From: a virus
IMG/VR virus record: IMGVR_UViG_3300045988_170308
Strand: one strand, 5' to 3'
DNA: 39,707 nt
The translations under genes and the position numbers were made by a program. Numbering within the stretch: position 1 is the stretch's first letter; each line of letters opens with the position of its first letter. Of the stretch, positions 2,654 through 39,607 are shown in pieces. A model generated the notes under the pieces. The model was not told where the DNA came from. It was given only the letters and a program-made list of their open reading frames with translations, and did not search any database.

Positions 2654-3439
2654 TTATTGGAAAGTCATAGGCGGCATGGGGTGAGCACCGTGCAAGCCCA
2701 GTGTGCGGCGGATGAAATCAATCCCCCGGGGGCGGACACGAGTCGTGTGCGTTACCACCTGGGTGCCGTTCGAACGGGTATAGCCGCCGGCCTTCACCTC
2801 GAAATAGGTTGCGTAGCGTTGGTATGGGGTGTTCCGCATATCGCCTTTAGTAATCAAGATGCCCCGGTTCCGTAGCTCACGGAAAAGCGTGTTCTGGCCG
2901 ATGCCTAGCATTTTCGCCACCGTGCCCATGCTGTAGGAGCCGGTGGAATCAATAAAACAGTCGTAGGCATCCGCCTTCGGCCGAAGCTGCTTATTAGCAG
3001 CCTCTAAGGCCAGGCGTTCCTCTTCAGCATTGAGCGCAATTAAAAGAATCTCAGAACGGGTCAACTGCGACGGGTCAAACGCCGGCGCCATGCGGGCACG
3101 CTTTTCCACCTCGATGAAATAGCGGCGGGCTTGCCTACCCTTCGCGGAGCGCTGGATCATGGCAATCTCCTTTGCCATGTCCAAAGACACAACATGATTC
3201 AACCGCGGCCGAGACGGCATTCCCGCAGGTGACGCCGAATGCTCATTTTTGAGCGCATAGTCCACCCCCTCCTCAAAACCATAGGCAACCATTCGCGGCC
3301 ACCAATCTTTATAGGGGGTTTTCACTTCCAGAAAACTATGAAGATCACGCCCCAACACCGCCTGAACGCCCTCCCCCATGTTCGTAATAGGGATGAGCTG
3401 GCCGCCACCTGGTGTATGATTATTATCTGGTTTCGACAT
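2654..3439 (-). CDS. Antirepressor, AntA-like N-domain plus KilAC C-domain
   Basis: 261 aa. The AntA-like N-terminus includes LHSFLEVKTPYKDWWPRMVAYGFEEGVDY. The KilAC-type C-terminus includes PKADAYDCFIDSTGSYSMGTVAKMLGIGQNTLFRELR. The C-domain is paralogous to ORF 20386..21174. Confidence 0.75.
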   Translation of the reverse strand: MSKPDNNHTPGGGQLIPITNMGEGVQAVLGRDLHSFLEVKTPYKDWWPRMVAYGFEEGVDYALKNEHSASPAGMPSRPRLNHVVSLDMAKEIAMIQRSAKGRQARRYFIEVEKRARMAPAFDPSQLTRSEILLIALNAEEERLALEAANKQLRPKADAYDCFIDSTGSYSMGTVAKMLGIGQNTLFRELRNRGILITKGDMRNTPYQRYATYFEVKAGGYTRSNGTQVVTHTTRVRPRGIDFIRRTLGLHGAHPMPPMTFQ

Positions 3440-6059: not shown

Positions 6060-7747
6060 TAGATGACTCCTAGATCATGGATACTGCTCATGGAAGATTT
6101 CACTCTGGTGAGGATTTGTTCCAGGGGTGAGTGCTGGGCCTGGGGGTCACCGCAGACACACGCCCAACCGCGGGTGTCGCGGTCAAGTTCGTAGGTGATT
6201 TCAGTGACCTGCTCCACCACTACCTGGTCGCCAGGGAGGCCTTTGATGGTGGCGCCGATCCGATCACCCAGGAAGAAATGGCCCTGGCCCCGGTCACCGA
6301 TAAACCATGGGGCGCCATCGCCGAGGGTGAGTTTGTGGGAGGTTTTTTCGCGGGTGTCCCAAAACCCCTCCCGGAGCGCGGCCAGAGCGGAAAGCGTGTA
6401 GCCGCGGTCTGCCCCGTCGGCGAAATGCTCCCAGTATTTTGACCAGCCGAGGGTGCGGCTACGCTGGATCGACTTGAGTGACATCCAGGCCAAAATAGTG
6501 TCCTCGTAGAAGGGTTTGAGGAGAGTATCCGCAATGACGCCGATGGTCGGTGTGGCAATGAACATACCCAGGTAATTACCAACCAGTGTCACCAGGGAGG
6601 ATAGGGCTTCGTTGACGCCGTAGGTGGAGTGGCCGCCAGTGAGGATTTGCACCGCGGTAGCGGGTTCCCAGGTGAAATCCGCGGCCTCTATACCGGTTAG
6701 CGGAGCATCCCGGTACAGCACATAAGGGCACTGGGGGATGGTGCCAAGCCAATTCGGGGCAGAATACTTCACCGGGATATTTGGGTTGGGGATCACTGTG
6801 TGCTCGGTGTCAACGTTATGTCCAACCAGTTGTTGGGTGGTGCGGAGGAAGCCTTCCCGGATAGTGCCCCACAAGGAGGTTCCTTCAGGATCAAACCACG
6901 AGGATTTGTCCACAATGTCGATAATCAGGCACCCGTGCCGGATTTTCGCACCCGGCCACGGGAGCGGATCCCCTGTCAGGTACCTGCGGCAGTCCACCAT
7001 CAGCTGGGCCTGCCGCAGCGGGCCAACTGCCATATCATGCCACGTTTTCATCCGCGACGAAATAATGGTCCACGGGGTGGTATCCCCACCGATCCGCCCC
7101 GGCGCGACCTGAATCGCCCAGGTGCGGGGGTTGAATGTGTCGGTCCATTCGGTAAGGTCGAGTGGGTCGTCGGGGAGCGCCCACACGGACCCCTCCAAGC
7201 GCCAGATGTTGAGCATGAGGGCGGTTTTGAGTGCCCACCGGGTGGGGCCTAGCAACATAAACGTGCGGGGAAACTGGACCGCTGCCGGGGTGAGCGGGTT
7301 CGGCCACACATAAACGTGTTTCAGCTCTTCGTAGTCGTGGAGGAAATTCAGCTCCAGGTATCTTTGGCCCGTGCGTTCTTTCACTAGGCGGGTGGATTTC
7401 AGGCGGCCGGACCACCTGGCCCCATCTTTGTCCATGGTGACATGGATGTTTTTTGTGGGGCGACTATGGTGGTCGAGGGCCCAAGTGGCAAGCCAGTGAT
7501 CTATCGGGATGGTGATGGTACCGGCCCCGGTGTCGTTGAGTTTCCACTGGAATTTGGCGTGGATGGCGTCTACCAGTCGGCCTTTGAGGTTCCAGTCACC
7601 GTCCCAAAACCGGATAAGAGGTGGGGTACGGCGGGCTAGGATGCGGCCCCGCCTGAGGGTTTGACCTTTCCGCCACACGGCCTCTAGCCGGTCTAGGGTG
7701 GTTTGGTCGAGGTTTTGGGTGCCCGGCATGAGGTGCAGGATGGTCAT
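6059..7747 (-). CDS. Tail-associated lysin / Tal-like minor tail protein
   Basis: Large ORF directly after Dit. The start was trimmed to the ATG at 7747, which has AGGAGG 6 nt upstream and a TAATG overlap with the Dit stop. The call is by position. Confidence 0.6.
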   Translation of the reverse strand: MTILHLMPGTQNLDQTTLDRLEAVWRKGQTLRRGRILARRTPPLIRFWDGDWNLKGRLVDAIHAKFQWKLNDTGAGTITIPIDHWLATWALDHHSRPTKNIHVTMDKDGARWSGRLKSTRLVKERTGQRYLELNFLHDYEELKHVYVWPNPLTPAAVQFPRTFMLLGPTRWALKTALMLNIWRLEGSVWALPDDPLDLTEWTDTFNPRTWAIQVAPGRIGGDTTPWTIISSRMKTWHDMAVGPLRQAQLMVDCRRYLTGDPLPWPGAKIRHGCLIIDIVDKSSWFDPEGTSLWGTIREGFLRTTQQLVGHNVDTEHTVIPNPNIPVKYSAPNWLGTIPQCPYVLYRDAPLTGIEAADFTWEPATAVQILTGGHSTYGVNEALSSLVTLVGNYLGMFIATPTIGVIADTLLKPFYEDTILAWMSLKSIQRSRTLGWSKYWEHFADGADRGYTLSALAALREGFWDTREKTSHKLTLGDGAPWFIGDRGQGHFFLGDRIGATIKGLPGDQVVVEQVTEITYELDRDTRGWACVCGDPQAQHSPLEQILTRVKSSMSSIHDLGVI

Positions 7748-20364: not shown

Positions 20365-20387
20365 AACCCCACCGGCTTGGTGGGGTT
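20365..20387 (-). terminator. Terminator-like hairpin overlapping the antirepressor stop codon (minus strand)
   Basis: 9-bp stem AACCCCACC / GGTGGGGTT with a 4-nt loop. On the minus strand it is followed by TTTATTC. Confidence 0.5.
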
Positions 20388-21174
20388 AGTTCATAGGGAT
20401 GGGGAGCATGGGGTCAATCCTGGTAAACCCTAGTGTTCTGCGGATAAAGTCAATGCCCTTGGGGAGAACATACGTGGTGTACGACACTTTTTCTTCCCCG
20501 TTCGGCTGCTCATAGCGGTGGGCTTTGACCTCGAAGTAGCCCATATGCCGCTGGTAGGGGGTGTTGCGCATAGCGCCGCGAGGAATCAACACACCTCGGT
20601 TACGCAGCTCACGGAACAGCCAGTTTTGGCCCACCCCCAACATCTTCGCTACCACACCCATGCTGTAGGAGCCAGACGTATCAATGAAAGAATCATAGGC
20701 GTCTGCTTTGGGCTGCATTTTCTTGTTTTCCGCCTCCAGCGCCAGGCGCTCAGTTTCGGCGTTCAGCAACATTTGCGCCATCTCCAGACGAGTGATCTGG
20801 GAAGGATCAAACGCTGGACGGGCGGCAAGCCGACGCTCCATGTCAGTGAATGCTTTAACAAGCTGCTTCTTGAACTGACGAACCACCGCAGTGTTACGCA
20901 TATAGGTCATGAGCAGCATTGCATGCTCACGATTCAATACCGCAATGGTGCGATTTTGGGTTCCACCAGCAGTTTCAAAGGGTCGGATTTCAAATCGTAC
21001 CCTTCCGAACTCCTCAAAATCTTCTTCATTATCACGCACAACCCGCAGCACACTGGCGTGTTGAATTTTCGTTCCTTCAGCAATAACGAGTGATGTGGTC
21101 GTCAGCTCCCCCTCAGGGGATTGCCGAACGATCATGGTATAGTCATTATCTGGATCTGGTTCTTGGTTAAACAT
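20386..21174 (-). CDS. Antirepressor, Rha-like N-domain plus KilAC C-domain
   Basis: 262 aa. The Rha-like N-terminus includes TSLVIAEGTKIQHASVLRVVRD and LLMTYMRNTAVVRQFKKQLVKAF. The C-terminus PKADAYDSFIDTSGSYSMGVVAKMLGVGQNWLFRELR aligns colinearly with ORF 2654..3439. Confidence 0.75.
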   Translation of the reverse strand: MFNQEPDPDNDYTMIVRQSPEGELTTTSLVIAEGTKIQHASVLRVVRDNEEDFEEFGRVRFEIRPFETAGGTQNRTIAVLNREHAMLLMTYMRNTAVVRQFKKQLVKAFTDMERRLAARPAFDPSQITRLEMAQMLLNAETERLALEAENKKMQPKADAYDSFIDTSGSYSMGVVAKMLGVGQNWLFRELRNRGVLIPRGAMRNTPYQRHMGYFEVKAHRYEQPNGEEKVSYTTYVLPKGIDFIRRTLGFTRIDPMLPIPMN

Positions 21175-21190
21175 CAGGAATCATCCTTTC

Positions 21191-21232
21191 TTATACAAAA
21201 ACCCGCGTGCCCCTATACGGAGCATGCGGGTT
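21191..21232 (-). terminator. Rho-independent terminator after the immunity-like ORF (minus strand)
   Basis: About 11-bp stem (AACCCGCGTGC / GCATGCGGGTT, one G-U pair). On the minus strand it is followed by TTTGTATAA. Confidence 0.55.
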
Positions 21233-21254: not shown

Positions 21255-21590
21255 TTAAGCAGGCACAGCAGGCAATGGATCATCCGGCATATAAACTACT
21301 TCAACATCATTCGGGGGCTCACAGATCGTGGCTTTATACCGCAGCTTTTTCACCGACTCGAAAATCTTCCGCTGCAAGTCTTCTTGCTCCTCAGGAACAA
21401 AAAGCAGCGTATCCAAATCCCCATCACTATTAACCCCGTAATCAAGTGAAATCAGAACACCATCTAAGGTACGGATATCATATGCTTCAGGATCTTGATT
21501 ACGAGCAATGGTATTCTCCGTATATGGCTCCTGCAGCAAAAGATCAACAACATCTTTGATAGGGGCATCTGACATTACAAAAAGACTCAT
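21255..21590 (-). CDS. Small acidic protein, candidate immunity protein for the MuF C-terminal toxin domain
   Basis: 111 aa. Its ATG overlaps the MuF stop (ATGA). It is rich in Asp/Glu and shares the AT-rich composition of the MuF 3' end. Confidence 0.45.
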   Translation of the reverse strand: MSLFVMSDAPIKDVVDLLLQEPYTENTIARNQDPEAYDIRTLDGVLISLDYGVNSDGDLDTLLFVPEEQEDLQRKIFESVKKLRYKATICEPPNDVEVVYMPDDPLPAVPA

Positions 21591-23260
21591 CGGGTAAACT
21601 CCTCTTCCTCACCATCATGGTTGATATAAATAATTTTACCTATTCTAGACAACCTGGGACTCCCAAGATTCATCTGAATATCTTTTCGCGCCTGCTCATC
21701 AGTAAGCTCTAAACGAGCAGCGTCAATGATGGCTTGTATTGATTCTATATGCGATAAGCTCTTGAAATTCTTTACAGCTTCACGCATATTATTGTAAATG
21801 GTATTTTTCCCACCACCCTTAGGCGCCTTCATCTCCGTAATAACGCCATCAAGAACAATATCAGGTGATGTCTTATCTTCACCATCACCCAACTTTCTAA
21901 TCCGAATTTCATGCCCATGTTTCAATAATGTGATAAGGGTGTCCCATTCATGGGTTGCTGGGTTGGTAGCTCCTTCTTCAGCTGATAACCGGTGTAGCCA
22001 ATCGGGATTATCACCGAACTTTTTCCGCACTTCGGGCGGAATGTAAACCTTTTCCCTTCTTTCTGCAAAGTCAAGCGTCACCCCTTCACCAGGCATGTCC
22101 TTACGAATCTCACTAGGCGGCATGTCAGGCTCGGCCTTTTCCGGGTCGGCTTTTAGCGCTGAGTATTTTTCCGGGTCGGCTTTTATTGCGTCAGCATATC
22201 GTTTGTTGAATCTATCCCTCGGCTGGTCAAGACCCGCATCTAGCTCCTCTTGCGTTGGCTGAAAAGTTGCGTCATCCCACAAATCCTTCAGGGCATGGTA
22301 TTGCTGCTCACCATTCCACGGTGATCCTTTAACAACAAGGACTGCTATGCAATCGCAGTGGTCATGATATTTCTCTCCTTCCCGCCGGGATCCCGAAACA
22401 TACGTATGGCCCCCGGTAGCGCCCGAATTCCGGTAATGAACTTGGCGGGGCCGTACTTCCCTGGGCTTCCCTGTTGTCACCACGGTGTCTTCGGAATATA
22501 CCGGCCCGCGGGATGCCAGCATCGCGCAAAAAGCACAGCTCTCAGCCCCGGTTAAAACCCTGGCCCACCCCAACACCTTGCCGCCAGGCTTGGTGCTAGC
22601 TGGTTCTGCCTTACTGGCCTTTTTCCTAGAATCGCGGTTATCGTCTCCCACCTTCCTGTCGTCGCTGGCGTATTCCACTATCACCTTGGGCCTGCCATCC
22701 GACTCAGTGCCATCTTCCACCGTCACCCGTGGACGTTTCCGCGCTGACACCACACGCACCCGGCCCTGGGCCGCGGTATCGACCACCACATCACGACCAG
22801 CTGCACGCGCATGCCGTACTGCCCCAGCAGCTACCCGGCGCGATACCTGAGCCAAGGCAGCAGGGTCGGCGGGATTAGCGGGGAAGGCCGCTACTTTTTC
22901 CAACAAGGCGCGCTGTGCATCTTTTGAATATGATTCGATATCGCCAGGTATCGGATCTTTTTTCGGGTTCCACCCTAGGGCGCGCAGGAGCATCTTCCAG
23001 GCCGCGTTAGGCTGGTATGTTCGCATAGGCGCCACGTCTATCTCCATGCCTCGTGCGCGCATATCTTCGGTCATGGTTTGGGCTGCGGATTGGTAGAACG
23101 CTTTCCTGGCTGTATGGATGAGCGGCAGCAGCGCGGTCACTAGGTCCCAGAGTGCTTCAATCGTGGTGGGGATTGTTTGGTCTTCGATCAGCTTATATAT
23201 CTGGTCTCTAAGCCACAGGGCGGTTTCCTGGTCTCGGGAGTGCTGGTTTTCGATGCTCAC
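21587..23260 (-). CDS. MuF-like head morphogenesis protein fused to a C-terminal PD-(D/E)xK-like nuclease (toxin) domain
   Basis: 557 aa directly after the portal gene. MuF-type Cys/His motif CAFCAML...HDHCDCIAV. The C-terminal ~170 aa contain HEWD...SPDIVLDGVITEMKAPK (PD...ExK). That part is visibly AT-richer than the rest of the gene. Confidence 0.7.
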   Translation of the reverse strand: MSIENQHSRDQETALWLRDQIYKLIEDQTIPTTIEALWDLVTALLPLIHTARKAFYQSAAQTMTEDMRARGMEIDVAPMRTYQPNAAWKMLLRALGWNPKKDPIPGDIESYSKDAQRALLEKVAAFPANPADPAALAQVSRRVAAGAVRHARAAGRDVVVDTAAQGRVRVVSARKRPRVTVEDGTESDGRPKVIVEYASDDRKVGDDNRDSRKKASKAEPASTKPGGKVLGWARVLTGAESCAFCAMLASRGPVYSEDTVVTTGKPREVRPRQVHYRNSGATGGHTYVSGSRREGEKYHDHCDCIAVLVVKGSPWNGEQQYHALKDLWDDATFQPTQEELDAGLDQPRDRFNKRYADAIKADPEKYSALKADPEKAEPDMPPSEIRKDMPGEGVTLDFAERREKVYIPPEVRKKFGDNPDWLHRLSAEEGATNPATHEWDTLITLLKHGHEIRIRKLGDGEDKTSPDIVLDGVITEMKAPKGGGKNTIYNNMREAVKNFKSLSHIESIQAIIDAARLELTDEQARKDIQMNLGSPRLSRIGKIIYINHDGEEEEFTR

Positions 23261-23282: not shown

Positions 23283-24698
23283 CTATGTCACTTCAGGCAT
23301 GGGCTGGGATTCATCTCCTTGTGTAGATGGGTAGCCATACTTGGTGAGGATCCGCTGGATTTTCTCCTCTGTGAACCCGGGGATGTCTTCCAGGAGTGCT
23401 TCCGCTGGTATGCCGAGCATGGTGGCGAGTTTCCCGAGCGCATCAACGGTTTGAGCAAACGACCTTGCTGTGGTGTCTTTCCATTTCACTTCGCCGGCGA
23501 AGTCAGCGGCTGAATCCGCATCACCGTCCATGTGTCCGCACAGCCGCAATAGTTGTTCGTATGATTCGCCGAGACTTGTTTGGATTTCGGAGGCTTTTCG
23601 GTCTTTGGCTGATTCCATGGCTGCCAGGCCATCGGCGCTGATGTTGCTGATGGCGTTCGCACCTAGGGATTGCGCTGGAACCTGGGCGATCGCGGCCAGG
23701 TCCCGTATGGTCGCTTGTTTAGAGTCAATGTACCGGGTTAGGTCGGTTTCCTCGAACTGACCGGCTTTTGTTTTGGTACCGTCCGCGTTGATGAACCAGA
23801 CATCGTTCGCTTTCATGCGGATCCCTTCGAGTTCATCTTTGGGGGCCCATCCGATGACGTATCGTTGTTTAAAGGCGGCATAGTATTGGGCGATGCCCAT
23901 TTCGTAGCTGGTTCTGTCGATTCGATCTTGGAGTGATAGGAGCGGCTCGATGATGCCGCCGTGTTCCTCACCGTCTAGTAGCCAGCGGTCCCGGAAGCGG
24001 ACGACTGGTGGCACCCCAGCGCCGTGAGGGCGGGCCTCGATGATCTGGAGGTTGATGGTGTTGTTCCAGGTTTCAGAAACCCATTCCGCTGGGTTCTTGG
24101 GCGCGTGACGTGCCCCGATGTAGTAGATGTAGTTTTCGTCTATGAGCCGCATCCTAGCCCCCCGGATTTCTAGGGCGAGAATAGGCCATTCTGAAGTGAG
24201 CCCGTATTCCCCCGGCCAGGCCCTTGATTCCCCGTAGTAGGCGGTCATCATGCGGGGAGAAACCCCAGTGATAAGCGGTGCGGATGCTTGGCCGGGGAAA
24301 GTACCCCGATCGACTACGGCATAGGATGTGCCGTATTTGAGGGCCGCCCGGGTGATTCCGGTTTGAGCAGCGTCCATCGCGTTGCGTTGCCAGTGCTCCC
24401 ACAGTGGGGATTGCTCGTAGTTGCCGCTGAAATAGTTTTCGATCTTCATCGACTGGGCGAATGTATCCAGCACTAGAGGGAGGAATGGGACTTGGGAGTC
24501 TTGGGCGATCTGGATATGGCGGTCATACCTGCCGCCTGGTGTCGACTTCTCGTTTAGGACCGTGAACCGGCCGGCCGCGTATTTCCGGGTCCAGGGCAGC
24601 ATCGCCATATGAATCTTGTTGTTCCTGGCGTATTCGTATGCGTGTTGGGACAGGAGTCCTCGCACACCATCGAGTACCGCCCGATTCGACATTTTCAT
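23283..24698 (-). CDS. Portal protein
   Basis: 471 aa. Its start overlaps the terL stop (TAATG). It lies between terL and MuF. Confidence 0.8.
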   Translation of the reverse strand: MKMSNRAVLDGVRGLLSQHAYEYARNNKIHMAMLPWTRKYAAGRFTVLNEKSTPGGRYDRHIQIAQDSQVPFLPLVLDTFAQSMKIENYFSGNYEQSPLWEHWQRNAMDAAQTGITRAALKYGTSYAVVDRGTFPGQASAPLITGVSPRMMTAYYGESRAWPGEYGLTSEWPILALEIRGARMRLIDENYIYYIGARHAPKNPAEWVSETWNNTINLQIIEARPHGAGVPPVVRFRDRWLLDGEEHGGIIEPLLSLQDRIDRTSYEMGIAQYYAAFKQRYVIGWAPKDELEGIRMKANDVWFINADGTKTKAGQFEETDLTRYIDSKQATIRDLAAIAQVPAQSLGANAISNISADGLAAMESAKDRKASEIQTSLGESYEQLLRLCGHMDGDADSAADFAGEVKWKDTTARSFAQTVDALGKLATMLGIPAEALLEDIPGFTEEKIQRILTKYGYPSTQGDESQPMPEVT

Positions 24699-26338
24699 TA
24701 CACAAACACCGCCCTTCCGTCATAGTGGGTATCTGGTTGGTTATCCAACCATTTTCGGCGCACCATCCGCGCACCGATGAGGCAAACCGCTGCATCAATT
24801 TTTTTCGCTGAGGTTGGGGATTCTTTCCGCACGGATATCCCGTAGCGGTTTTCCGCCCGGTAGCAGTTCCGTAAGTGGTCTGTGAGGATTATAGAGCCGT
24901 CGTAGGTGAATCCGTGCTCAATGATTTCTCTTTCTGTTAGTTCGCATGCCCGGGTGAAATCAAAGCTTTTGCTGCGCATGTCCCAGGCGATTGGCTCGGG
25001 GTTTGCCCCAGATGGTACCGCCCACAGTTCTAGTTGGTCTTTGTAGCATTCTGGCCACGTAATCTTCGTGAAGGATTCCCATTCACGCACGTCAGCGAAG
25101 AACGCTTTCACTGTCCACGTGTCAAACGCATGGGCGACACGGGCTGTGACGGCTTCAACATCAATGGTTTTCTTCTCTGCTTGGGACACGTGGCTGTTAC
25201 CAGGATCCCACGCCCCGATGAGGAAAACATGGCCATCGCTAACTCGGCACCCCACCAGGGCTGTGGTATCTCGGGTGAGCGATCCATCGAAGAACATGAC
25301 AATTTCTTCGCCAGGCTCTACCTGGATATCCGGCATGGCCATGAGCGCCAAGTCTTTGGGGTCAATCCACGCATCAACAGACGCTACTGGCCAGTTCAGA
25401 TATTTACGTTTCGAGTCATCCGGTTTAGCACTGTGCGTCCAAATGCGGGTCATGATGGCGTCGATATCGACCCATGGGCAGTCCTCGTACACGAACTCCA
25501 GCCCGGCGCGGAGCGATGCCGCATCGGCTAGGTTGGTTTCTGGCGGGGCTTGGATGATATCCATGAGGATCTGTTTTTCATTCTTGGATAGGCCTTTCTC
25601 TTGGTTGCACCAGTCGAGAAACGTGTGCTCTCCCACGGTGTTTTTCCCCGGTTTCCAGGCGTTCAGGGTGCCTAGCATACGGGACCCTGACTTAGTTAGG
25701 TTATCCACCAAGGTGCTGTATAGCTCACCGCCGCCTTTAGCTGGGGTCCAGTGCTCTAACTCATCGCCAATAATGAACGTTGCCTCCGCGCCCTCCTGGG
25801 TGGTAGCAGATGATGTAATGACTTCCAGTTTGCCTTCGGGGACAACATTGATCTTCGTAATACCGGGGTCAATGTCGTAATCGCGGTGCAGCTCGATCGC
25901 TGTCTTCTTATTAGCCATCGCCCTGATATGTCTCATCGTGTTGTCTGTTTGCGCCTCAGAAACCGCGGCTATTTGCACCCACGGCATCGCCACAGGTTTA
26001 CCAATGCAGCCGCCGAGCACTTGCGGATCAAACCTTTCCAGCCTGACGGGGGCAAGCAGCTCAATGAGCGCCATAGCGGCAGCGAACGGCGACTTGCCGG
26101 AGCCTTTAGCTAGACGACGGAACGCATTGTAGAACAACCATTTTCCATCTGGGCCAACGGCGTAAAACCATAAAACGAACCTGGCCTGGCGGTTGGTGAA
26201 TTTCCACGGCAACCCGGCGCGAATCCCATTCGGGTGCTTTAAGTATTTCGCGGCCCACGCTAGCGCCTCCCAGCCGAGCGTTAAATCGGGAACCCCCGGG
26301 GGAAGCGTGTCTAGCCGCTCCTCCGGGGGAATCATCAT
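24698..26338 (-). CDS. terL: Terminase large subunit
   Basis: 546 aa. Walker-A-like LAKGSGKSPFAA. ATGA overlap with terS. It lies upstream of the portal gene. Confidence 0.85.
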   Translation of the reverse strand: MMIPPEERLDTLPPGVPDLTLGWEALAWAAKYLKHPNGIRAGLPWKFTNRQARFVLWFYAVGPDGKWLFYNAFRRLAKGSGKSPFAAAMALIELLAPVRLERFDPQVLGGCIGKPVAMPWVQIAAVSEAQTDNTMRHIRAMANKKTAIELHRDYDIDPGITKINVVPEGKLEVITSSATTQEGAEATFIIGDELEHWTPAKGGGELYSTLVDNLTKSGSRMLGTLNAWKPGKNTVGEHTFLDWCNQEKGLSKNEKQILMDIIQAPPETNLADAASLRAGLEFVYEDCPWVDIDAIMTRIWTHSAKPDDSKRKYLNWPVASVDAWIDPKDLALMAMPDIQVEPGEEIVMFFDGSLTRDTTALVGCRVSDGHVFLIGAWDPGNSHVSQAEKKTIDVEAVTARVAHAFDTWTVKAFFADVREWESFTKITWPECYKDQLELWAVPSGANPEPIAWDMRSKSFDFTRACELTEREIIEHGFTYDGSIILTDHLRNCYRAENRYGISVRKESPTSAKKIDAAVCLIGARMVRRKWLDNQPDTHYDGRAVFV

Positions 26339-35528: not shown

Positions 35529-35795
35529 TCACGCAGCAGATCGCTTACTTGGCCGGCGGCGTTGAGGTCGGATTTTTTCTGTCGAAACGTAAAATGCATC
35601 GGCGAATTCAACCGGATAGGTTGTCAATACAGATCCGATAAATCGTGGTCCTGCTTCGGCTTGCCCTCTGGCATATCGGCTAATAGTCGATACGGTTGTC
35701 TGCAGTTCATCCGCTAGGCCGGATAAGCTGCCCGCTTGCGTTATTCGATGCTCAAGCCAATCTTGTCGCACTCGAACCGTGTTTACGGTAGGCAT
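35529..35795 (-). CDS. Cro-like XRE-family HTH regulator
   Basis: 88 aa from the ATG at 35795, which has AGGAGG 4 nt upstream. The HTH is GSLSGLADELQTTVSTISRYARGQ. It is divergent from the repressor gene. Confidence 0.7.
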   Translation of the reverse strand: MPTVNTVRVRQDWLEHRITQAGSLSGLADELQTTVSTISRYARGQAEAGPRFIGSVLTTYPVEFADAFYVSTEKIRPQRRRPSKRSAA

Positions 35796-35825
35796 TTCGC
35801 CTCCTTTGTTTTTAAACAATCTTGA

Positions 35826-35919
35826 TTTGTGCTTACGCAAGCAAGAATAGACCAATTTTTGTTCTAGCGCAAGGCCAATTTGGATTGGCCCAATAACTTG
35901 CCTTTTTGTGCTTACGCAA
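35826..35919. promoter_or_regulatory. Genetic switch: two identical 15-bp operator-like repeats plus a central inverted repeat, with divergent promoters
   Basis: TTTGTGCTTACGCAA at 35826-35840 and 35905-35919. GGCCAATttggATTGGCC at 35873-35890. On the plus strand, TTGCCT-17 nt-TACGAT ends 7 nt before the repressor ATG, which suggests a leaderless mRNA. The second repeat fills that spacer. Confidence 0.6.
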
Positions 35920-35933
35920 TTACGATCTGACAC

Positions 35934-36464
35934 ATGAAGCAAACTCGCTGGTGGAAATACGTAACAGAAACAATCCAAGGTCGCACTTTCAAAGAAGCTG
36001 CCAAAATCGCAGGATTCGACCAATCAGCTTTCACCCGATGGAAAGATGGTGCAGCCGCAAAACCTGAATTCGTTGTAAAATTTGCCCGCGCCTATAACCG
36101 CAATGTCTTAGAAGCCCTAGTGGAGGCAGAATTTATCACAGAACAAGAAGCGGGATTGCAAAAAGTAAACGTTCCAGATATCCGATCCGCACTACGGCTC
36201 GCACCTGAGGAATGGCTAGCTGACGAGGTACTCAACCGAATGCGCGTAGGCGCAAAAACTGACGAGTTCGCACCCCCTCTTGACGAACTGGTTGAACGCA
36301 AACGACATAAAGCTAATAAACACCCTGATCCCAAACCGGATGATCCTTGGGCTGCTGCGACCACAGTTAGTGGTAAGGGCTCGTGGCGCGGTGATGAAAT
36401 GGTTGCCGATGACTCGGAGGAAGAAGGCTTCCTAGGTGACGATAATTACAGCGATGGTCTATAA
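35934..36464 (+). CDS. CI-like immunity repressor (HTH)
   Basis: 176 aa. The N-terminal HTH is RTFKEAAKIAGFDQSAFTRWKDG, followed by FARAYNRNVLEALVEAEFITEQEA. It is divergent from the cro-like gene and has an acidic C-terminal tail. Confidence 0.7.
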   Translation: MKQTRWWKYVTETIQGRTFKEAAKIAGFDQSAFTRWKDGAAAKPEFVVKFARAYNRNVLEALVEAEFITEQEAGLQKVNVPDIRSALRLAPEEWLADEVLNRMRVGAKTDEFAPPLDELVERKRHKANKHPDPKPDDPWAAATTVSGKGSWRGDEMVADDSEEEGFLGDDNYSDGL

Positions 36465-36467
36465 TTT

Positions 36468-36980
36468 TTGTGCTACAACCAGCGGGTTTCCCAATTCGGG
36501 ACTAGCCTAGATAGCATGGGAATTCTTAGTGTCGGCGGCCCACAGAATATGCTTTCACTCTCCGATAAAAGGCTTGCGCTTGTTTACGCTGCAGCTTTGG
36601 AGGTTTTTAAGCGAACTGGCCGCATTACTATCTGCTCTTGGTACAGCGATGAAGAACAATACGCTGCTGTGAGCGCATCCGCTCTTTTTCCTAAATCAAT
36701 TCCTTTTCCTGGAAGAGCCTACAAGATCAAAGAAGTTGATGATGGCCAATACGTTTTGGTGCTCATTCCTGCTTACAGCACAGAACCGGCACCGGTACCC
36801 AAGCCTAAAGCCGTCAAGAAAGTCGCCGATCTCGTCGAAAAGCATGATTGCTGGCTCATACTAGACAAAAGCGACCAAATCATCAGCACCCCCAAGGTCA
36901 TCGAAGAAATCAAGGCCACTGCTAAGTGCATTGATGGAGTAGCCTACCTCAAGGAACTAAACTCCCAAGAAGAAGCTTAA
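36468..36980 (+). CDS. Hypothetical protein co-oriented with the repressor (lysogeny-expressed cargo; start uncertain)
   Basis: Up to 170 aa. Alternative ATG starts lie at 36516 and 36552. It is lower in GC than the structural genes and is followed by a hairpin. Confidence 0.5.
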   Translation: MCYNQRVSQFGTSLDSMGILSVGGPQNMLSLSDKRLALVYAAALEVFKRTGRITICSWYSDEEQYAAVSASALFPKSIPFPGRAYKIKEVDDGQYVLVLIPAYSTEPAPVPKPKAVKKVADLVEKHDCWLILDKSDQIISTPKVIEEIKATAKCIDGVAYLKELNSQEEA

Positions 36981-36998
36981 AGTTCTTACTCGTAAACA

Positions 36999-37040
36999 AA
37001 CCCCGGCGCGCTCAGGTGACCGGGGTTGATGTATTTGATA
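36999..37040 (+). terminator. Terminator-like hairpin after the repressor operon
   Basis: 8-bp stem AACCCCGG / CCGGGGTT with a 13-nt loop, followed by a moderately T-rich stretch. Confidence 0.4.
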
Positions 37041-37056
37041 ATTATGTGCATGGCCT

Positions 37057-37084
37057 GTAATCGAATCTTTACCTAAAACCTATA
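37057..37084. repeat. 28-bp direct repeat, left copy (27/28 identical to 37695-37722)
   Basis: gtaatcgaatctttacctaaaacctata versus gtaaccgaatctttacctaaaacctata. Confidence 0.85.
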
Positions 37085-37151
37085 TACGAATAAGTCTTTA
37101 GCGGGTAGTCTTTTCCTTAAATAATATTCATAAGAACATGAGGGAACGACC

Positions 37152-37277
37152 ATGGCCGATATTTATGATGCTCGATCCACTAGAGAATGGTGCAATCAAG
37201 AAGCCGTAGGCGAGCTTTTTTGCCAGACGGTACTTAACGATAGCGGAAGAGGTTGCAGCCATGATAACCATGCTTGA
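37152..37277 (+). CDS. 41-aa ORF with degenerate XRE-HTH-like sequence, overlapping the ImmA start
   Basis: MADIYDARSTREWCNQEAVGELFCQTVLNDSGRGCSHDNHA. The stretch IYDAR..NQEAVGELF.QTVLNDSGRG parallels the XRE pattern I..lR...g.sQeelAe..g.s...is..ErG. It is below the ORF-track cutoff. Confidence 0.3.
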   Translation: MADIYDARSTREWCNQEAVGELFCQTVLNDSGRGCSHDNHA

Positions 37278-37668
37278 TTTGGAACAATTAGCCGAAGAGA
37301 TGGGCGTCATGATAGTTACCCATACCGGTGGCAAGAAGGGTGGTTGGAATCCGGCAACCCGCACCGTCAGCCTTCGGGAGGGCATGCACGAAGTGCAAAC
37401 ATTGTGCACGCTAGCACACGAACTGGGGCATGCCCACTATAGACACCAGCTTGGCGCAACAGGATTGGCACGCGAACAACAGGAACGTGAAGCAAACGAA
37501 TGGGCCGCAATCTTACTCATAGATGAGAATGATTACATGGCGGCCGAAATCAGCTGTGACAGTATAAGCTCGATCGCTCACGAGCTGGGCGTGACTATTC
37601 TCATGGTTGGGATTTGGAGACAGCTCTACGCCAAAGGGAAGATACCGCAGTACTGCATCCAGGACTAG
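37261..37668 (+). CDS. ImmA/IrrE-family zinc metallopeptidase
   Basis: 135 aa. HEXXH motif in LCTLAHELGHAHYRH, with a downstream ExxANxWAA segment typical of this family. Confidence 0.75.
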   Translation: MITMLDLEQLAEEMGVMIVTHTGGKKGGWNPATRTVSLREGMHEVQTLCTLAHELGHAHYRHQLGATGLAREQQEREANEWAAILLIDENDYMAAEISCDSISSIAHELGVTILMVGIWRQLYAKGKIPQYCIQD

Positions 37669-37694
37669 TGATTCCTCAATTGCTACGAAACCCC

Positions 37695-37722
37695 GTAACC
37701 GAATCTTTACCTAAAACCTATA
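37695..37722. repeat. 28-bp direct repeat, right copy
   Basis: See 37057-37084. The two copies bracket the HTH-like plus ImmA cassette. Confidence 0.85.
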
Positions 37723-37747
37723 ATAGCTAGATTGTTATAAGGCAAGT

Positions 37748-37783
37748 CCCCTACCTCCGTGATGAGGGTAGGGGTTATTTTTT
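37748..37783 (+). terminator. Rho-independent terminator after the ImmA gene
   Basis: 8-bp stem CCCCTACC / GGTAGGGG followed by TTATTTTTTAT. Confidence 0.7.
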
Positions 37784-37800
37784 ATAATACCCCCACTTGA

Positions 37801-38151
37801 CACGGTGAAAACATTTTCGTCTACGCCGACCCCCCTTACCTAGGCCAAGGCGAAGGCCTCTATCTCCACGCCTTTGATGAACCCCAACACAAAGCACTCG
37901 CCAAGAAACTAGCCGACGCCACATTTTACTGGATGCTCACATACGATGACGACCCCTTCATCACCGAAGACCTCTACCACCACGCCCGAGCAGCAATCTT
38001 CCCTATCGCCCACACAGCCCACCACCAACATGTCGGCGCCGAATCAATCATCTACTCAAGCAGCCTCATCATCCCTAACCTGCAAGTCACCAAAAAACAC
38101 ACCGCGCAATGGACACCCAACACCACCCAACCCGAACCCATTCTTTCCTGA
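37801..38151 (+). pseudogene. 5'-truncated DNA adenine methyltransferase (Dam/D12-class) remnant
   Basis: The frame opens right after a TGA at 37798-37800 and reads HGENIFVYADPPYLGQGEGLYLHAFDEPQHKALAKKLADATFYWMLTYDDD... It has catalytic motif IV (DPPY) and the C-terminal region. It has no N-terminal AdoMet-binding region and no start codon before DPPY. Confidence 0.65.
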
Positions 38152-38362: not shown

Positions 38363-39607
38363 TCATTCACCGCTGATAGATAGGTTCACTTTATCCATAA
38401 GCACGTCGATGCGGCCCGTGCGCACCTTCATATACACGCGAATAATCGTTTCCAGATCCGATTGCCCCAATAACCGACCGATCTCTTTCACGTGCGCACC
38501 TTGCTCAGCCAACCTGGTAATCAACCAGTTCCGCCCACAGTGCGGGTCAATATCCGTAGTTACTCCAGCCGCCACCTCAGCCGCGTTAAGCCGGCTACGG
38601 TAACTTGTATCCATCACCGGGCGACCCGTGCGTGTTGTTGTGAAAAGCTTCACCATACGGTCACCCCACTGGCTACGGACCCGGCATGCTACCGCTGGGT
38701 AGTCTCGCATATGGTCAAAGAAAAACCTGGTATGGCTCGCCATAATCGGCACAGTGCGGTACCCCGCGGACGTCTTAGGCGTCTGCCAATTCATATACAC
38801 ATGGCTTTTACCATCAACTTTTTCCGTAAGCCTCTGCGCATTCTGCTCTATGGTGACTAGTATTCTCGGAGCATACGGCACATCACCTATCACACACACA
38901 TGCCGTTGTTCTAAAGCCAGAGCCTCCCCTATCCGCAACCCATGGAACAGCACCAATGACGTTAGCGCCTTATACCTGGCCGGCATATGCTCAATGATCG
39001 CTTTGAGCTCCTCATCGGAGGGGAGATATTTTTCTTCCGGCTTCACTCTTATCCCCGCGGCCTTAATTTCCACCGGGTTAGCCGGGATTAATTCCCGATC
39101 CACAGCCGCAGCGCATGCAGCCTTTAACCGTTTGTAAGCCTTCTGATTCACCGTCGGCGACTTATACGCCACACTGATAGCCTCCCACCACTCATAAACA
39201 TCATTCTTCGTCAGATCAGCAAGCGCAATCCCCGCAAGCCTAGTGATCGCAGCCACCTTATCGCCTGGTGGAAGGGGTGCCGTAATCCGATTCCGAACCG
39301 CCCTTTCATAAACCTGAATAGTGGACTCCTTCACCGGAACCGGCCGGTGCCGCAACGCCTCATGAAACCGCTCGACCCACTCACCAACAGTGATCCTGCT
39401 AGCCTTACGCTTCTCCTGGGCTGCTTCCCGCTGGGCGGGTGGGGTCCATTGCCCAAACGTAATAAGCTCCTCTTCCCCAGATAACCACGCCCCGGCAAGC
39501 CGCTTCGTCTTAAACGTTGATGGCGCCTTATACGACACGCCCTTATGATGGTACCGTGCCTGATAACGACCTGATGGAAGCTTACGGATACTGCCAAAAG
39601 CGGACAT
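38363..39607 (-). CDS. int: Tyrosine integrase
   Basis: 414 aa. N-terminal GSIRKLPSGRYQARY. Catalytic-region motifs HGLRIGEALAL, HCGRNW and IIRVYMKV. It is adjacent to the terminal repeat. Confidence 0.9.
   Translation of the reverse strand: MSAFGSIRKLPSGRYQARYHHKGVSYKAPSTFKTKRLAGAWLSGEEELITFGQWTPPAQREAAQEKRKASRITVGEWVERFHEALRHRPVPVKESTIQVYERAVRNRITAPLPPGDKVAAITRLAGIALADLTKNDVYEWWEAISVAYKSPTVNQKAYKRLKAACAAAVDRELIPANPVEIKAAGIRVKPEEKYLPSDEELKAIIEHMPARYKALTSLVLFHGLRIGEALALEQRHVCVIGDVPYAPRILVTIEQNAQRLTEKVDGKSHVYMNWQTPKTSAGYRTVPIMASHTRFFFDHMRDYPAVACRVRSQWGDRMVKLFTTTRTGRPVMDTSYRSRLNAAEVAAGVTTDIDPHCGRNWLITRLAEQGAHVKEIGRLLGQSDLETIIRVYMKVRTGRIDVLMDKVNLSISGE

Follow-up and report, generated by a model that had tools for sequence, protein, structure and literature searches.

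The stretch of DNA analysed here, called the window throughout, is the 39,707-nucleotide (nt) virus record IMGVR_UViG_3300045988_170308 of IMG/VR, and the locus in question is a pair of overlapping genes on its minus strand. The first gene (21587-23260) starts with a GTG codon at 23260, 22 nt 3' of the portal gene, which ends at 23283, and encodes a 557-amino-acid (aa) protein in which a MuF4/VG15-type minor head protein is followed by a predicted toxin domain. The protein can be divided into a MuF4 core (residues 1-369; 22154-23260), an acidic linker (residues 370-408; 22037-22153) and a PD-(D/E)xK toxin domain (residues 409-557; 21590-22036), all encoded on the minus strand. The second gene is an open reading frame (ORF) of 111 aa (21255-21590, minus strand) and a candidate immunity gene. 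We consider the locus to be a polymorphic toxin gene of the MuF family paired with a cognate immunity gene, with a probability of roughly 0.85.

The N-terminal 369 residues are assigned to a MuF4-type minor head protein because of a match to the Pfam family VG15 (PF25310, E 1.9e-13), a match to mycobacteriophage Angel gp4 and tblastn matches to many actinophage genes. Angel gp4 is the seed by which Jamet et al. defined the MuF4 branch (PMC5576092); it matches PF25310 with an E-value of 5e-32 inside its first 215 residues, and BLASTP of the 557-aa protein against it aligned the CxxC...HDxCxC region, which reads CAFC...HDHCDC in the window (E 7e-6). In GenBank phages, tblastn found 963 actinophage genes, whose annotations read minor capsid protein, MuF-like protein or capsid maturation protease, and homologues carried the names 'minor capsid protein' or 'VG15 protein [Corynebacterium matruchotii]'. 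The 557-aa protein did not match the Pfam families Phage_Mu_F (PF04233) and PF06152 at E-values up to 1, and it can therefore be placed in the MuF4 branch only. The original prediction, made from the letters of the window, had described a normal MuF core with the Cys/His motif CAFC...HDHCDC; the motif and the superfamily stand, and the branch is MuF4/VG15 instead of Pfam Phage_Mu_F.

The core ends with KADPEKYSAL. A homologue search with alignment of the junction showed that the MuF4 core is conserved in all relatives up to the equivalent of the first KADPEKYS. Relatives without a toxin are 345-348 aa long and extend only 2-6 residues past the equivalent motif, while the window protein has 188 residues beyond the core end. 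Other relatives diverge fully past the junction and carry an EndoU_bacteria domain, a papain-fold glutamine deamidase (Gln_amidase), an ADP-ribosyltransferase (ADPrib_exo_Tox), another CdiA_C domain or an extension with no known domain. These alignments show that the C-terminal module is optional and exchangeable after the first KADPEKYS motif; the original prediction had suggested looking for a swap at the KADPEK linker. The junction is further marked by two exact 19-nt direct repeats, TTTTCCGGGTCGGCTTTTA, at 22137-22155 and 22167-22185; they lie 30 nt apart and encode KADPEK at residues 360 and 370, exactly as first noticed, and by our own estimate the chance expectation of a 19-nt repeat in 2.4 kb is about 1e-5. 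In some close relatives the junction is 5 aa shorter (KADPEKYSALKAEPD). The 30-nt duplication, sited precisely at the swap junction, may be a recombination scar.

Beyond the linker, which is predicted to be disordered (isoelectric point, pI, 4.8), residues 465-551 match the Pfam family PF18451 (CdiA_C) with an E-value of 1.1e-8 and 35.5 bits, against a cutoff of 26.6, over profile positions 2-80 of 81. Most close homologues have the same precomputed CdiA_C annotation. An AlphaFold model of the C-terminus, built on an alignment of eight sequences, reached a mean predicted local distance difference test score (pLDDT) of 80.5, with most of the domain above 90 and values below 50 for model residues 1-28, which correspond to protein residues 376-403. 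When this predicted model was compared with the PDB using Foldseek, the sole significant match was 4g6v_A, the CdiA-CT toxin of B. pseudomallei 1026b (E 5.7e-8, probability 1.00, 143 aligned columns), with a template modelling (TM) score of 0.65 normalised to the target and 0.49 normalised to the query, at 17% identity. Weaker matches, with E-values of at least 0.1 (next best 0.14), were to other PD-(D/E)xK nucleases, namely NucS, Mus81, Hjc and PspGI. Six residues are invariant in the alignment of homologues down to 24% identity: E438 (21947-21949), D467 (21860-21862), D471, E476 (21833-21835), K478 (21827-21829) and D513, with codon positions given on the minus strand. E438 belongs to the HEWD motif at residues 437-440, and residues 465-481 read SPDIVLDGVITEMKAPK. 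The model places E438 in the first long helix, D467 where the second core strand begins and E476-x-K478 on the next strand, a predicted layout that is the canonical PD-(D/E)xK arrangement. The above-cutoff family match and the single significant fold match support a PD-(D/E)xK nuclease-type polymorphic-toxin domain; both profile search and structure prediction thereby bear out the PD-x(n)-E-x-K toxin module that had been proposed for the C-terminus. NCBIfam and PADLOC gave no match for the toxin. When only the C-terminal 184 residues were used to search for homologues, none was returned, which reflects a limitation of the word index, as full-length homologues exist.

The closest characterised relative refines the proposal further, as it is a tRNase and not a DNase. 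The Bp1026b toxin is a Mg2+-dependent tRNase that cuts the acceptor stem of tRNA-Ala and uses E187, D214, D223 and K242 (PMC9086364). The spacing of the acidic residues is E-27-D-9-D in Bp1026b and E-29-D-9-E in the window protein, whereas the lysine is placed differently: K242 follows D223 by 19 residues, and K478 occupies the canonical ExK position. Because the acidic spacings match those of Bp1026b and the lysine position does not, a tRNase is a best guess and not a demonstrated activity, and by analogy with this relative we give tRNA about an even chance of being the substrate.

The 111-aa ORF begins in an ATGA that overlaps the MuF stop codon, with a GAGGAG Shine-Dalgarno sequence 8 nt upstream, and encodes an acidic protein (pI 4.05; 23 D+E against 9 K+R), in line with the small acidic ORF on the MuF stop that was first described. 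Its sequence and position make it a candidate cognate immunity protein, translationally coupled to the toxin. No family was found for it in Pfam, PHROG, NCBIfam or PADLOC, and exhaustive searching of 1.84 billion cluster representatives with a profile returned nine clusters only. The model of the protein (pLDDT 85) had no Foldseek match in the PDB below an E-value of 1e-3, the best being a Roco COR domain at 9e-3, and in BFVD it matched only one uncharacterised phage protein, which is 76% identical. The Roco-COR and KA1 fold matches were rejected as not meaningful (E ~1e-2, TM <0.5), and a Colicin_Pyocin immunity match (E 0.19) was rejected as chance. Similarity to CdiI, the immunity protein of 4G6V, was not seen either: no PDB sequence match was better than E 0.19, and chain B of 4g6v was not among the Foldseek matches. 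The immunity family, without description and without a fold match, is thus a new element of the locus. The suggestion that the toxin and immunity sequences may be undescribed applies to the immunity family and does not extend to the toxin, whose domain family is described and is also present in MuF toxins (PMC5576092).

The presence and identity of the small ORF follow those of the toxin domain among related phages. In the syntenic but toxin-less phage L048, the MuF gene is followed directly by the scaffold gene and the small ORF is absent, while in L021, which has a different C-terminus, an unrelated 106-aa ORF is found at the same place. In L045, the toxin domain is 43% identical to that of the window, and the overlapping 112-aa ORF is 31% identical to the small ORF (E 4e-15). 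A more distant immunity homologue, P0139, is about 25% identical and overlaps the end of a gene whose CdiA_C C-terminus is 32% identical. Toxin and immunity homologues accordingly co-occur at identities of 100/100, 43/31 and 32/~25%, and distant immunity homologues are always downstream of distant toxin homologues. These comparisons support a downstream ORF that appears, changes and co-varies with the toxin, and with it the notion that the two genes form a pair.

Similar arrangements were seen in three settings. L021 (5000-6057) and L019-L033 form a sister group with a MuF core of 45% identity, in which an extension of ~250 aa without a Pfam domain is followed by the unrelated 106-aa ORF, a combination that may represent a MuF toxin/immunity pair not yet described. 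L051 (2-724) is a short contig holding a partial gene that ends in a CdiA_C domain and a homologous immunity ORF; the upstream part is proline-rich and the 150 residues available contain no MuF motif, and the toxin/immunity pair may also be carried on a different N-terminal scaffold. In the Corynebacterium amycolatum-type phages L036 and L038 (3935-5513), a shorter MuF-CdiA_C fusion (405 aa) is followed by an overlapping 122-aa ORF. Homology of this ORF to the immunity ORF was not established, as they share only an N-terminal SDAxIxDV motif, with an hhalign probability of 20%.

We also compared 19 near-identical phage loci, comprising IMG/VR contigs, one Corynebacterium metagenome-assembled genome (MAG) and the window itself. 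The MuF core is 92-96% identical across them. Toxin residues 480-557, in contrast, fall into four types with 97-100% identity within a type, and the other three types are 62-72% identical to type A, which is that of the window; L002, L005 and L009 exemplify the remaining types among A-D. The immunity ORF likewise has four types, each paired with its own toxin type in all 19 loci, such that only the four diagonal combinations occur. The antirepressor gene ~80 nt further downstream has two alleles (96-99% and 86-88% identity), and all eight possible combinations of toxin type and antirepressor allele were present. Recombination is therefore frequent here, and yet the end of the toxin and the start of the immunity gene were never separated. 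Only over roughly 21260-21860 does the nucleotide identity between types fall to ~70%, compared to 92-99% in the flanks, and the exact divergent block between types A and B defines a minimal hypervariable cassette (21387-21823, minus strand) that covers toxin residues 480-557 and immunity residues 1-68. Synonymous divergence (dS) ranges from 0.9 to saturation inside the block, compared to 0.12-0.19 in the core, while the ratio of nonsynonymous to synonymous divergence (dN/dS) is 0.1-0.3 everywhere. Since dS is saturated and dN/dS is low, the four alleles are old, functionally constrained and moved by recombination; the same values led us to reject positive selection as an explanation for the divergence of the cassette.

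The cassette also stands out by its composition. The guanine-cytosine (GC) fraction is 0.38-0.41 between 21400 and 21900, whereas the window as a whole averages 0.571 (standard deviation 0.046, 500-nt windows), and the four 500-nt windows with the lowest GC in the 39.7 kb (minimum 0.404) all fall in the toxin/immunity region, so that the AT-richer stretch noted at ~21255-22100 turns out to be the lowest in GC of the whole window. GC at in-frame third codon positions (GC3) is 0.38 in the toxin and 0.40 in the small ORF, compared to 0.58-0.65 in neighbouring genes; the low GC is therefore not solely an effect of amino-acid composition. Low GC and GC3 are common to all alleles and to more distant cassettes, and the lowest GC and GC3, taken with the saturated dS, count for a foreign or ancient origin of the cassette.

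After the immunity ORF, RNA folding revealed a terminator-like hairpin with a run of five U (21197-21231, minus strand). It has 12 pairs, with interruptions, and the 78-nt stretch folds with a minimum free energy of -27.8 kcal/mol (z -2.7). A consensus terminator scan of the minus strand did not call it; the terminator proposed in the original prediction was hence missed by consensus and recovered as a conserved terminator-like hairpin, whose motif ACCCGC...GCGGGTTTT is kept in 17 of 17 close loci and is variant in the 45%-identity group. The hairpin is kept across phages with different toxins (L023, L026 and L030, ~6060-6100), where the outer stem ACCCGC/GCGGGT is constant and the inner stem and loop vary. 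If this hairpin, which lies in the middle of the late operon, does terminate transcription, the downstream scaffold and capsid genes would need read-through or a promoter of their own.

The locus belongs to the MuF polymorphic toxin class, MuF4 branch, and is not a new kind of system, because all testable defining features of that class are found in it. The class was defined in 2017, and cd13442, the Bp1026b-like domain, was already named among MuF toxin domains (Jamet et al., PMC5576092). As in that class, a post-portal minor head gene of a temperate phage combines an N-terminal domain of the MuF superfamily with a C-terminal extension of more than 100 aa, whose toxin domain is common to other polymorphic toxin families, and is followed by an ORF of less than 150 aa tied to the extension. 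Compared to the survey (PMC5576092), the locus adds a 30-nt duplicated junction, an uncharacterised immunity family and four alleles with breakpoints inside both the toxin domain and the immunity gene; its host, an oral Corynebacterium, does not appear to be represented among the MuF toxins of the survey. The new elements are thus the oral Corynebacterium host group, the undescribed immunity family and the fine-scale four-allele cassette with breakpoints in both genes.

The CdiA-CT/CdiI system of B. pseudomallei 1026b (4G6V; PF18451, cd13442) shares with the locus the PD-(D/E)xK fold and family, the acidic spacing and an immunity gene directly downstream. It differs in the 17% identity, in the ExK lysine and in the immunity protein, which has neither sequence nor fold similarity to CdiI-1026b. 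Moreover, the scaffold in the window is a phage head protein and not the CdiA filament of a type V secretion system, and its neighbours are portal, terminase and scaffold genes with no CdiB/CdiA system, such that the contact-dependent growth inhibition (CDI) system shares the toxin domain only. A parallel in architecture is offered by the Apk2 MuF toxins of Streptococcus pneumoniae, Mannheimia and Pasteurella prophages, which have been shown to be toxic and whose binding-type immunity protein IapK is mostly cognate-specific (PMC12226406). Both are MuF-toxin fusions, with toxicity demonstrated for Apk2 and predicted for the window protein; Apk2 is a (p)ppApp synthetase from another MuF branch with two immunity genes, whereas the locus has a nuclease-type domain and one immunity candidate.

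We propose that the fusion of the MuF4/VG15 core (1-369), a flexible acidic linker and a 150-residue PD-(D/E)xK domain of the CdiA-CT Bp1026b type would act as a metal-dependent tRNA nuclease through E438, D467, E476 and K478, by extension from its closest characterised relative. The 111-aa acidic protein, made together with the toxin through translational coupling, would neutralise it by direct binding, and specificity would reside in toxin residues 480-557 and immunity residues 1-68. By analogy with SPP1 gp7 and Mu gpF, a few copies of the fusion protein could be carried inside the capsid and pass into the next cell along with the DNA, with the outcome that cells without matching immunity would be harmed or that takeover of the host by the phage would be aided; the protein might thus play a part when lysogens compete with non-immune cells. 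MuF proteins have been proposed to be packaged and to enter with the DNA (PMC5576092; PMC12226406), and we regard delivery by the virion as possible, at somewhat less than even odds.

Nuclease colicins E2, E7, E8 and E9 combine a conserved catalytic core with variable patches in the toxin and the small acidic immunity protein that define several specificity types within one population. The likeness is functional only, as colicins have an HNH fold instead of PD-(D/E)xK and an unrelated delivery. The four alleles might be non-cross-protecting specificity types, held under frequency-dependent selection and shuffled by recombination, the particles might be strain-discriminating toxin carriers among C. 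matruchotii in dental plaque, and the immunity protein might represent an undescribed fold family for PD-(D/E)xK tRNase toxins; we put this extended proposal forward tentatively, as something that may well prove wrong.

Several other explanations of the same genes have to be weighed against a delivered toxin with its immunity protein. The module could instead serve the phage's own infection, injected or expressed late, by shutting off the host or destroying host tRNA or defence RNA, with the small ORF protecting the producer until lysis. Such a role would suit a gene in the late head operon, for which a sigma-70 consensus scan found no separate immunity promoter, and a protein family thought to enter with the DNA (PMC12226406). 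Close relatives, on the other hand, have no extension or carry unrelated enzymatic toxins, so that the function must be one that can be dispensed with or exchanged; the upkeep of four immunity-specific alleles in one population is also more readily explained by discrimination between carriers than by a fixed host target, and we hold a role in the phage's own infection to be somewhat unlikely. A question nested within the toxin reading is whether the domain is a DNase that degrades recipient DNA, in the manner of the PD-(D/E)xK toxins CdiA-CT TA271 and YPIII or of restriction endonucleases. PD-(D/E)xK toxins of CDI systems do include Zn-dependent DNases (PMC9086364), and the canonical D...ExK motif and the weak fold matches to the DNA nucleases Hjc, NucS, Mus81 and PspGI point the same way, but significant family and fold matches are confined to the Bp1026b tRNase clade, with DNase-type structures at E-values of 0.1 or worse, which makes a DNase unlikely.

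That a prophage addiction or abortive-infection toxin-antitoxin pair was fused to the head gene by chance, and acts undelivered inside the lysogen, is very unlikely. The layout of a small acidic antidote with an enzymatic toxin would fit, and the neighbouring antirepressor suggests a moron-rich spot; yet the toxin lacks a separate start and is covalently joined to a protein of the virion, PADLOC gave no match, and the many toxin types found on the same MuF core are the defining pattern of polymorphic toxins and not of toxin-antitoxin modules. Still more improbable is that the domain is no toxin at all but an inactive or structural nuclease fold for head assembly or DNA-end binding, with the 111-aa ORF as an assembly chaperone. 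MuF proteins do bind DNA ends (PMC12226406) and toxic activity is so far predicted only, but the catalytic E/D/ExK residues are invariant at identities as low as 24%, the dN/dS values indicate a constrained enzyme, and phages that are otherwise syntenic lack both the extension and the small ORF.

Some results weigh against a MuF toxin with cognate immunity even as we favour it. Because the toxin and immunity genes are neighbours, linkage accounts for part of their perfect co-variation. The structure 4G6V was missed when the PDB was searched by sequence and by profile, and the link to it rests on the Pfam profile and the predicted fold. The canonical ExK lysine, as opposed to K242 of Bp1026b, means that the active sites may differ and that the substrate could be DNA or another RNA. 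With a pI of 5.9, the toxin domain is also mildly acidic, whereas many nucleases are basic. The sigma-70 consensus scan, finally, found no promoter from which the immunity gene could be expressed during lysogeny.

To our knowledge, MuF toxins have been little tested, and the (p)ppApp-synthetase type alone has been characterised experimentally. The locus offers a clean natural system in which a nuclease-type MuF toxin is present as four alleles on one phage backbone, the mapped breakpoints predict specificity-determining surfaces, and toxin-less and other-toxin relatives could serve as controls. It could thus be used to ask if virions deliver MuF toxins and if these toxins mediate competition between strains.

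The carrier is a temperate phage of the siphovirus type, with oral Corynebacterium (C. matruchotii group) as its host. C. matruchotii is a key structural species of human dental plaque. The host assignment draws on P0068, which is annotated as C. matruchotii, and on the one Corynebacterium MAG that has the locus and was the single such genome found by a profile search of genome contigs with a narrow alignment. With 9 kb as the query, megablast found nothing similar among GenBank phages, and a literature search found no paper describing these phages. The phage is temperate, as the window contains a tyrosine integrase (38363-39607), two antirepressors, a lysin and a full structural module. In this standard head module, the large terminase (24698-26338, minus strand) and an SPP1-type portal (23283-24698, minus strand; PF05133, E 2.8e-26) precede the MuF gene, and past the antirepressor the module continues on the minus strand with scaffold, decoration-like and major capsid protein genes. 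The lysin (1171-2643) combines an Rv2525c-like glycoside hydrolase with Amidase_2.

The antirepressor within the head-morphogenesis operon is of the Rha/KilAC type (20386-21174, minus strand), and a second one (AntA + KilAC; 2654-3439, minus strand) adjoins the lysin gene; the phage therefore has two KilAC-domain antirepressors. The former sits between the toxin-immunity module, past the terminator-like hairpin, and the scaffold gene, a position at which the related phages L045, L048 and L021 have no antirepressor. A second low-GC stretch is found at 35700-37900 (0.44-0.46 in 500-nt windows), near the integrase end, and is probably a lysogeny or moron region.

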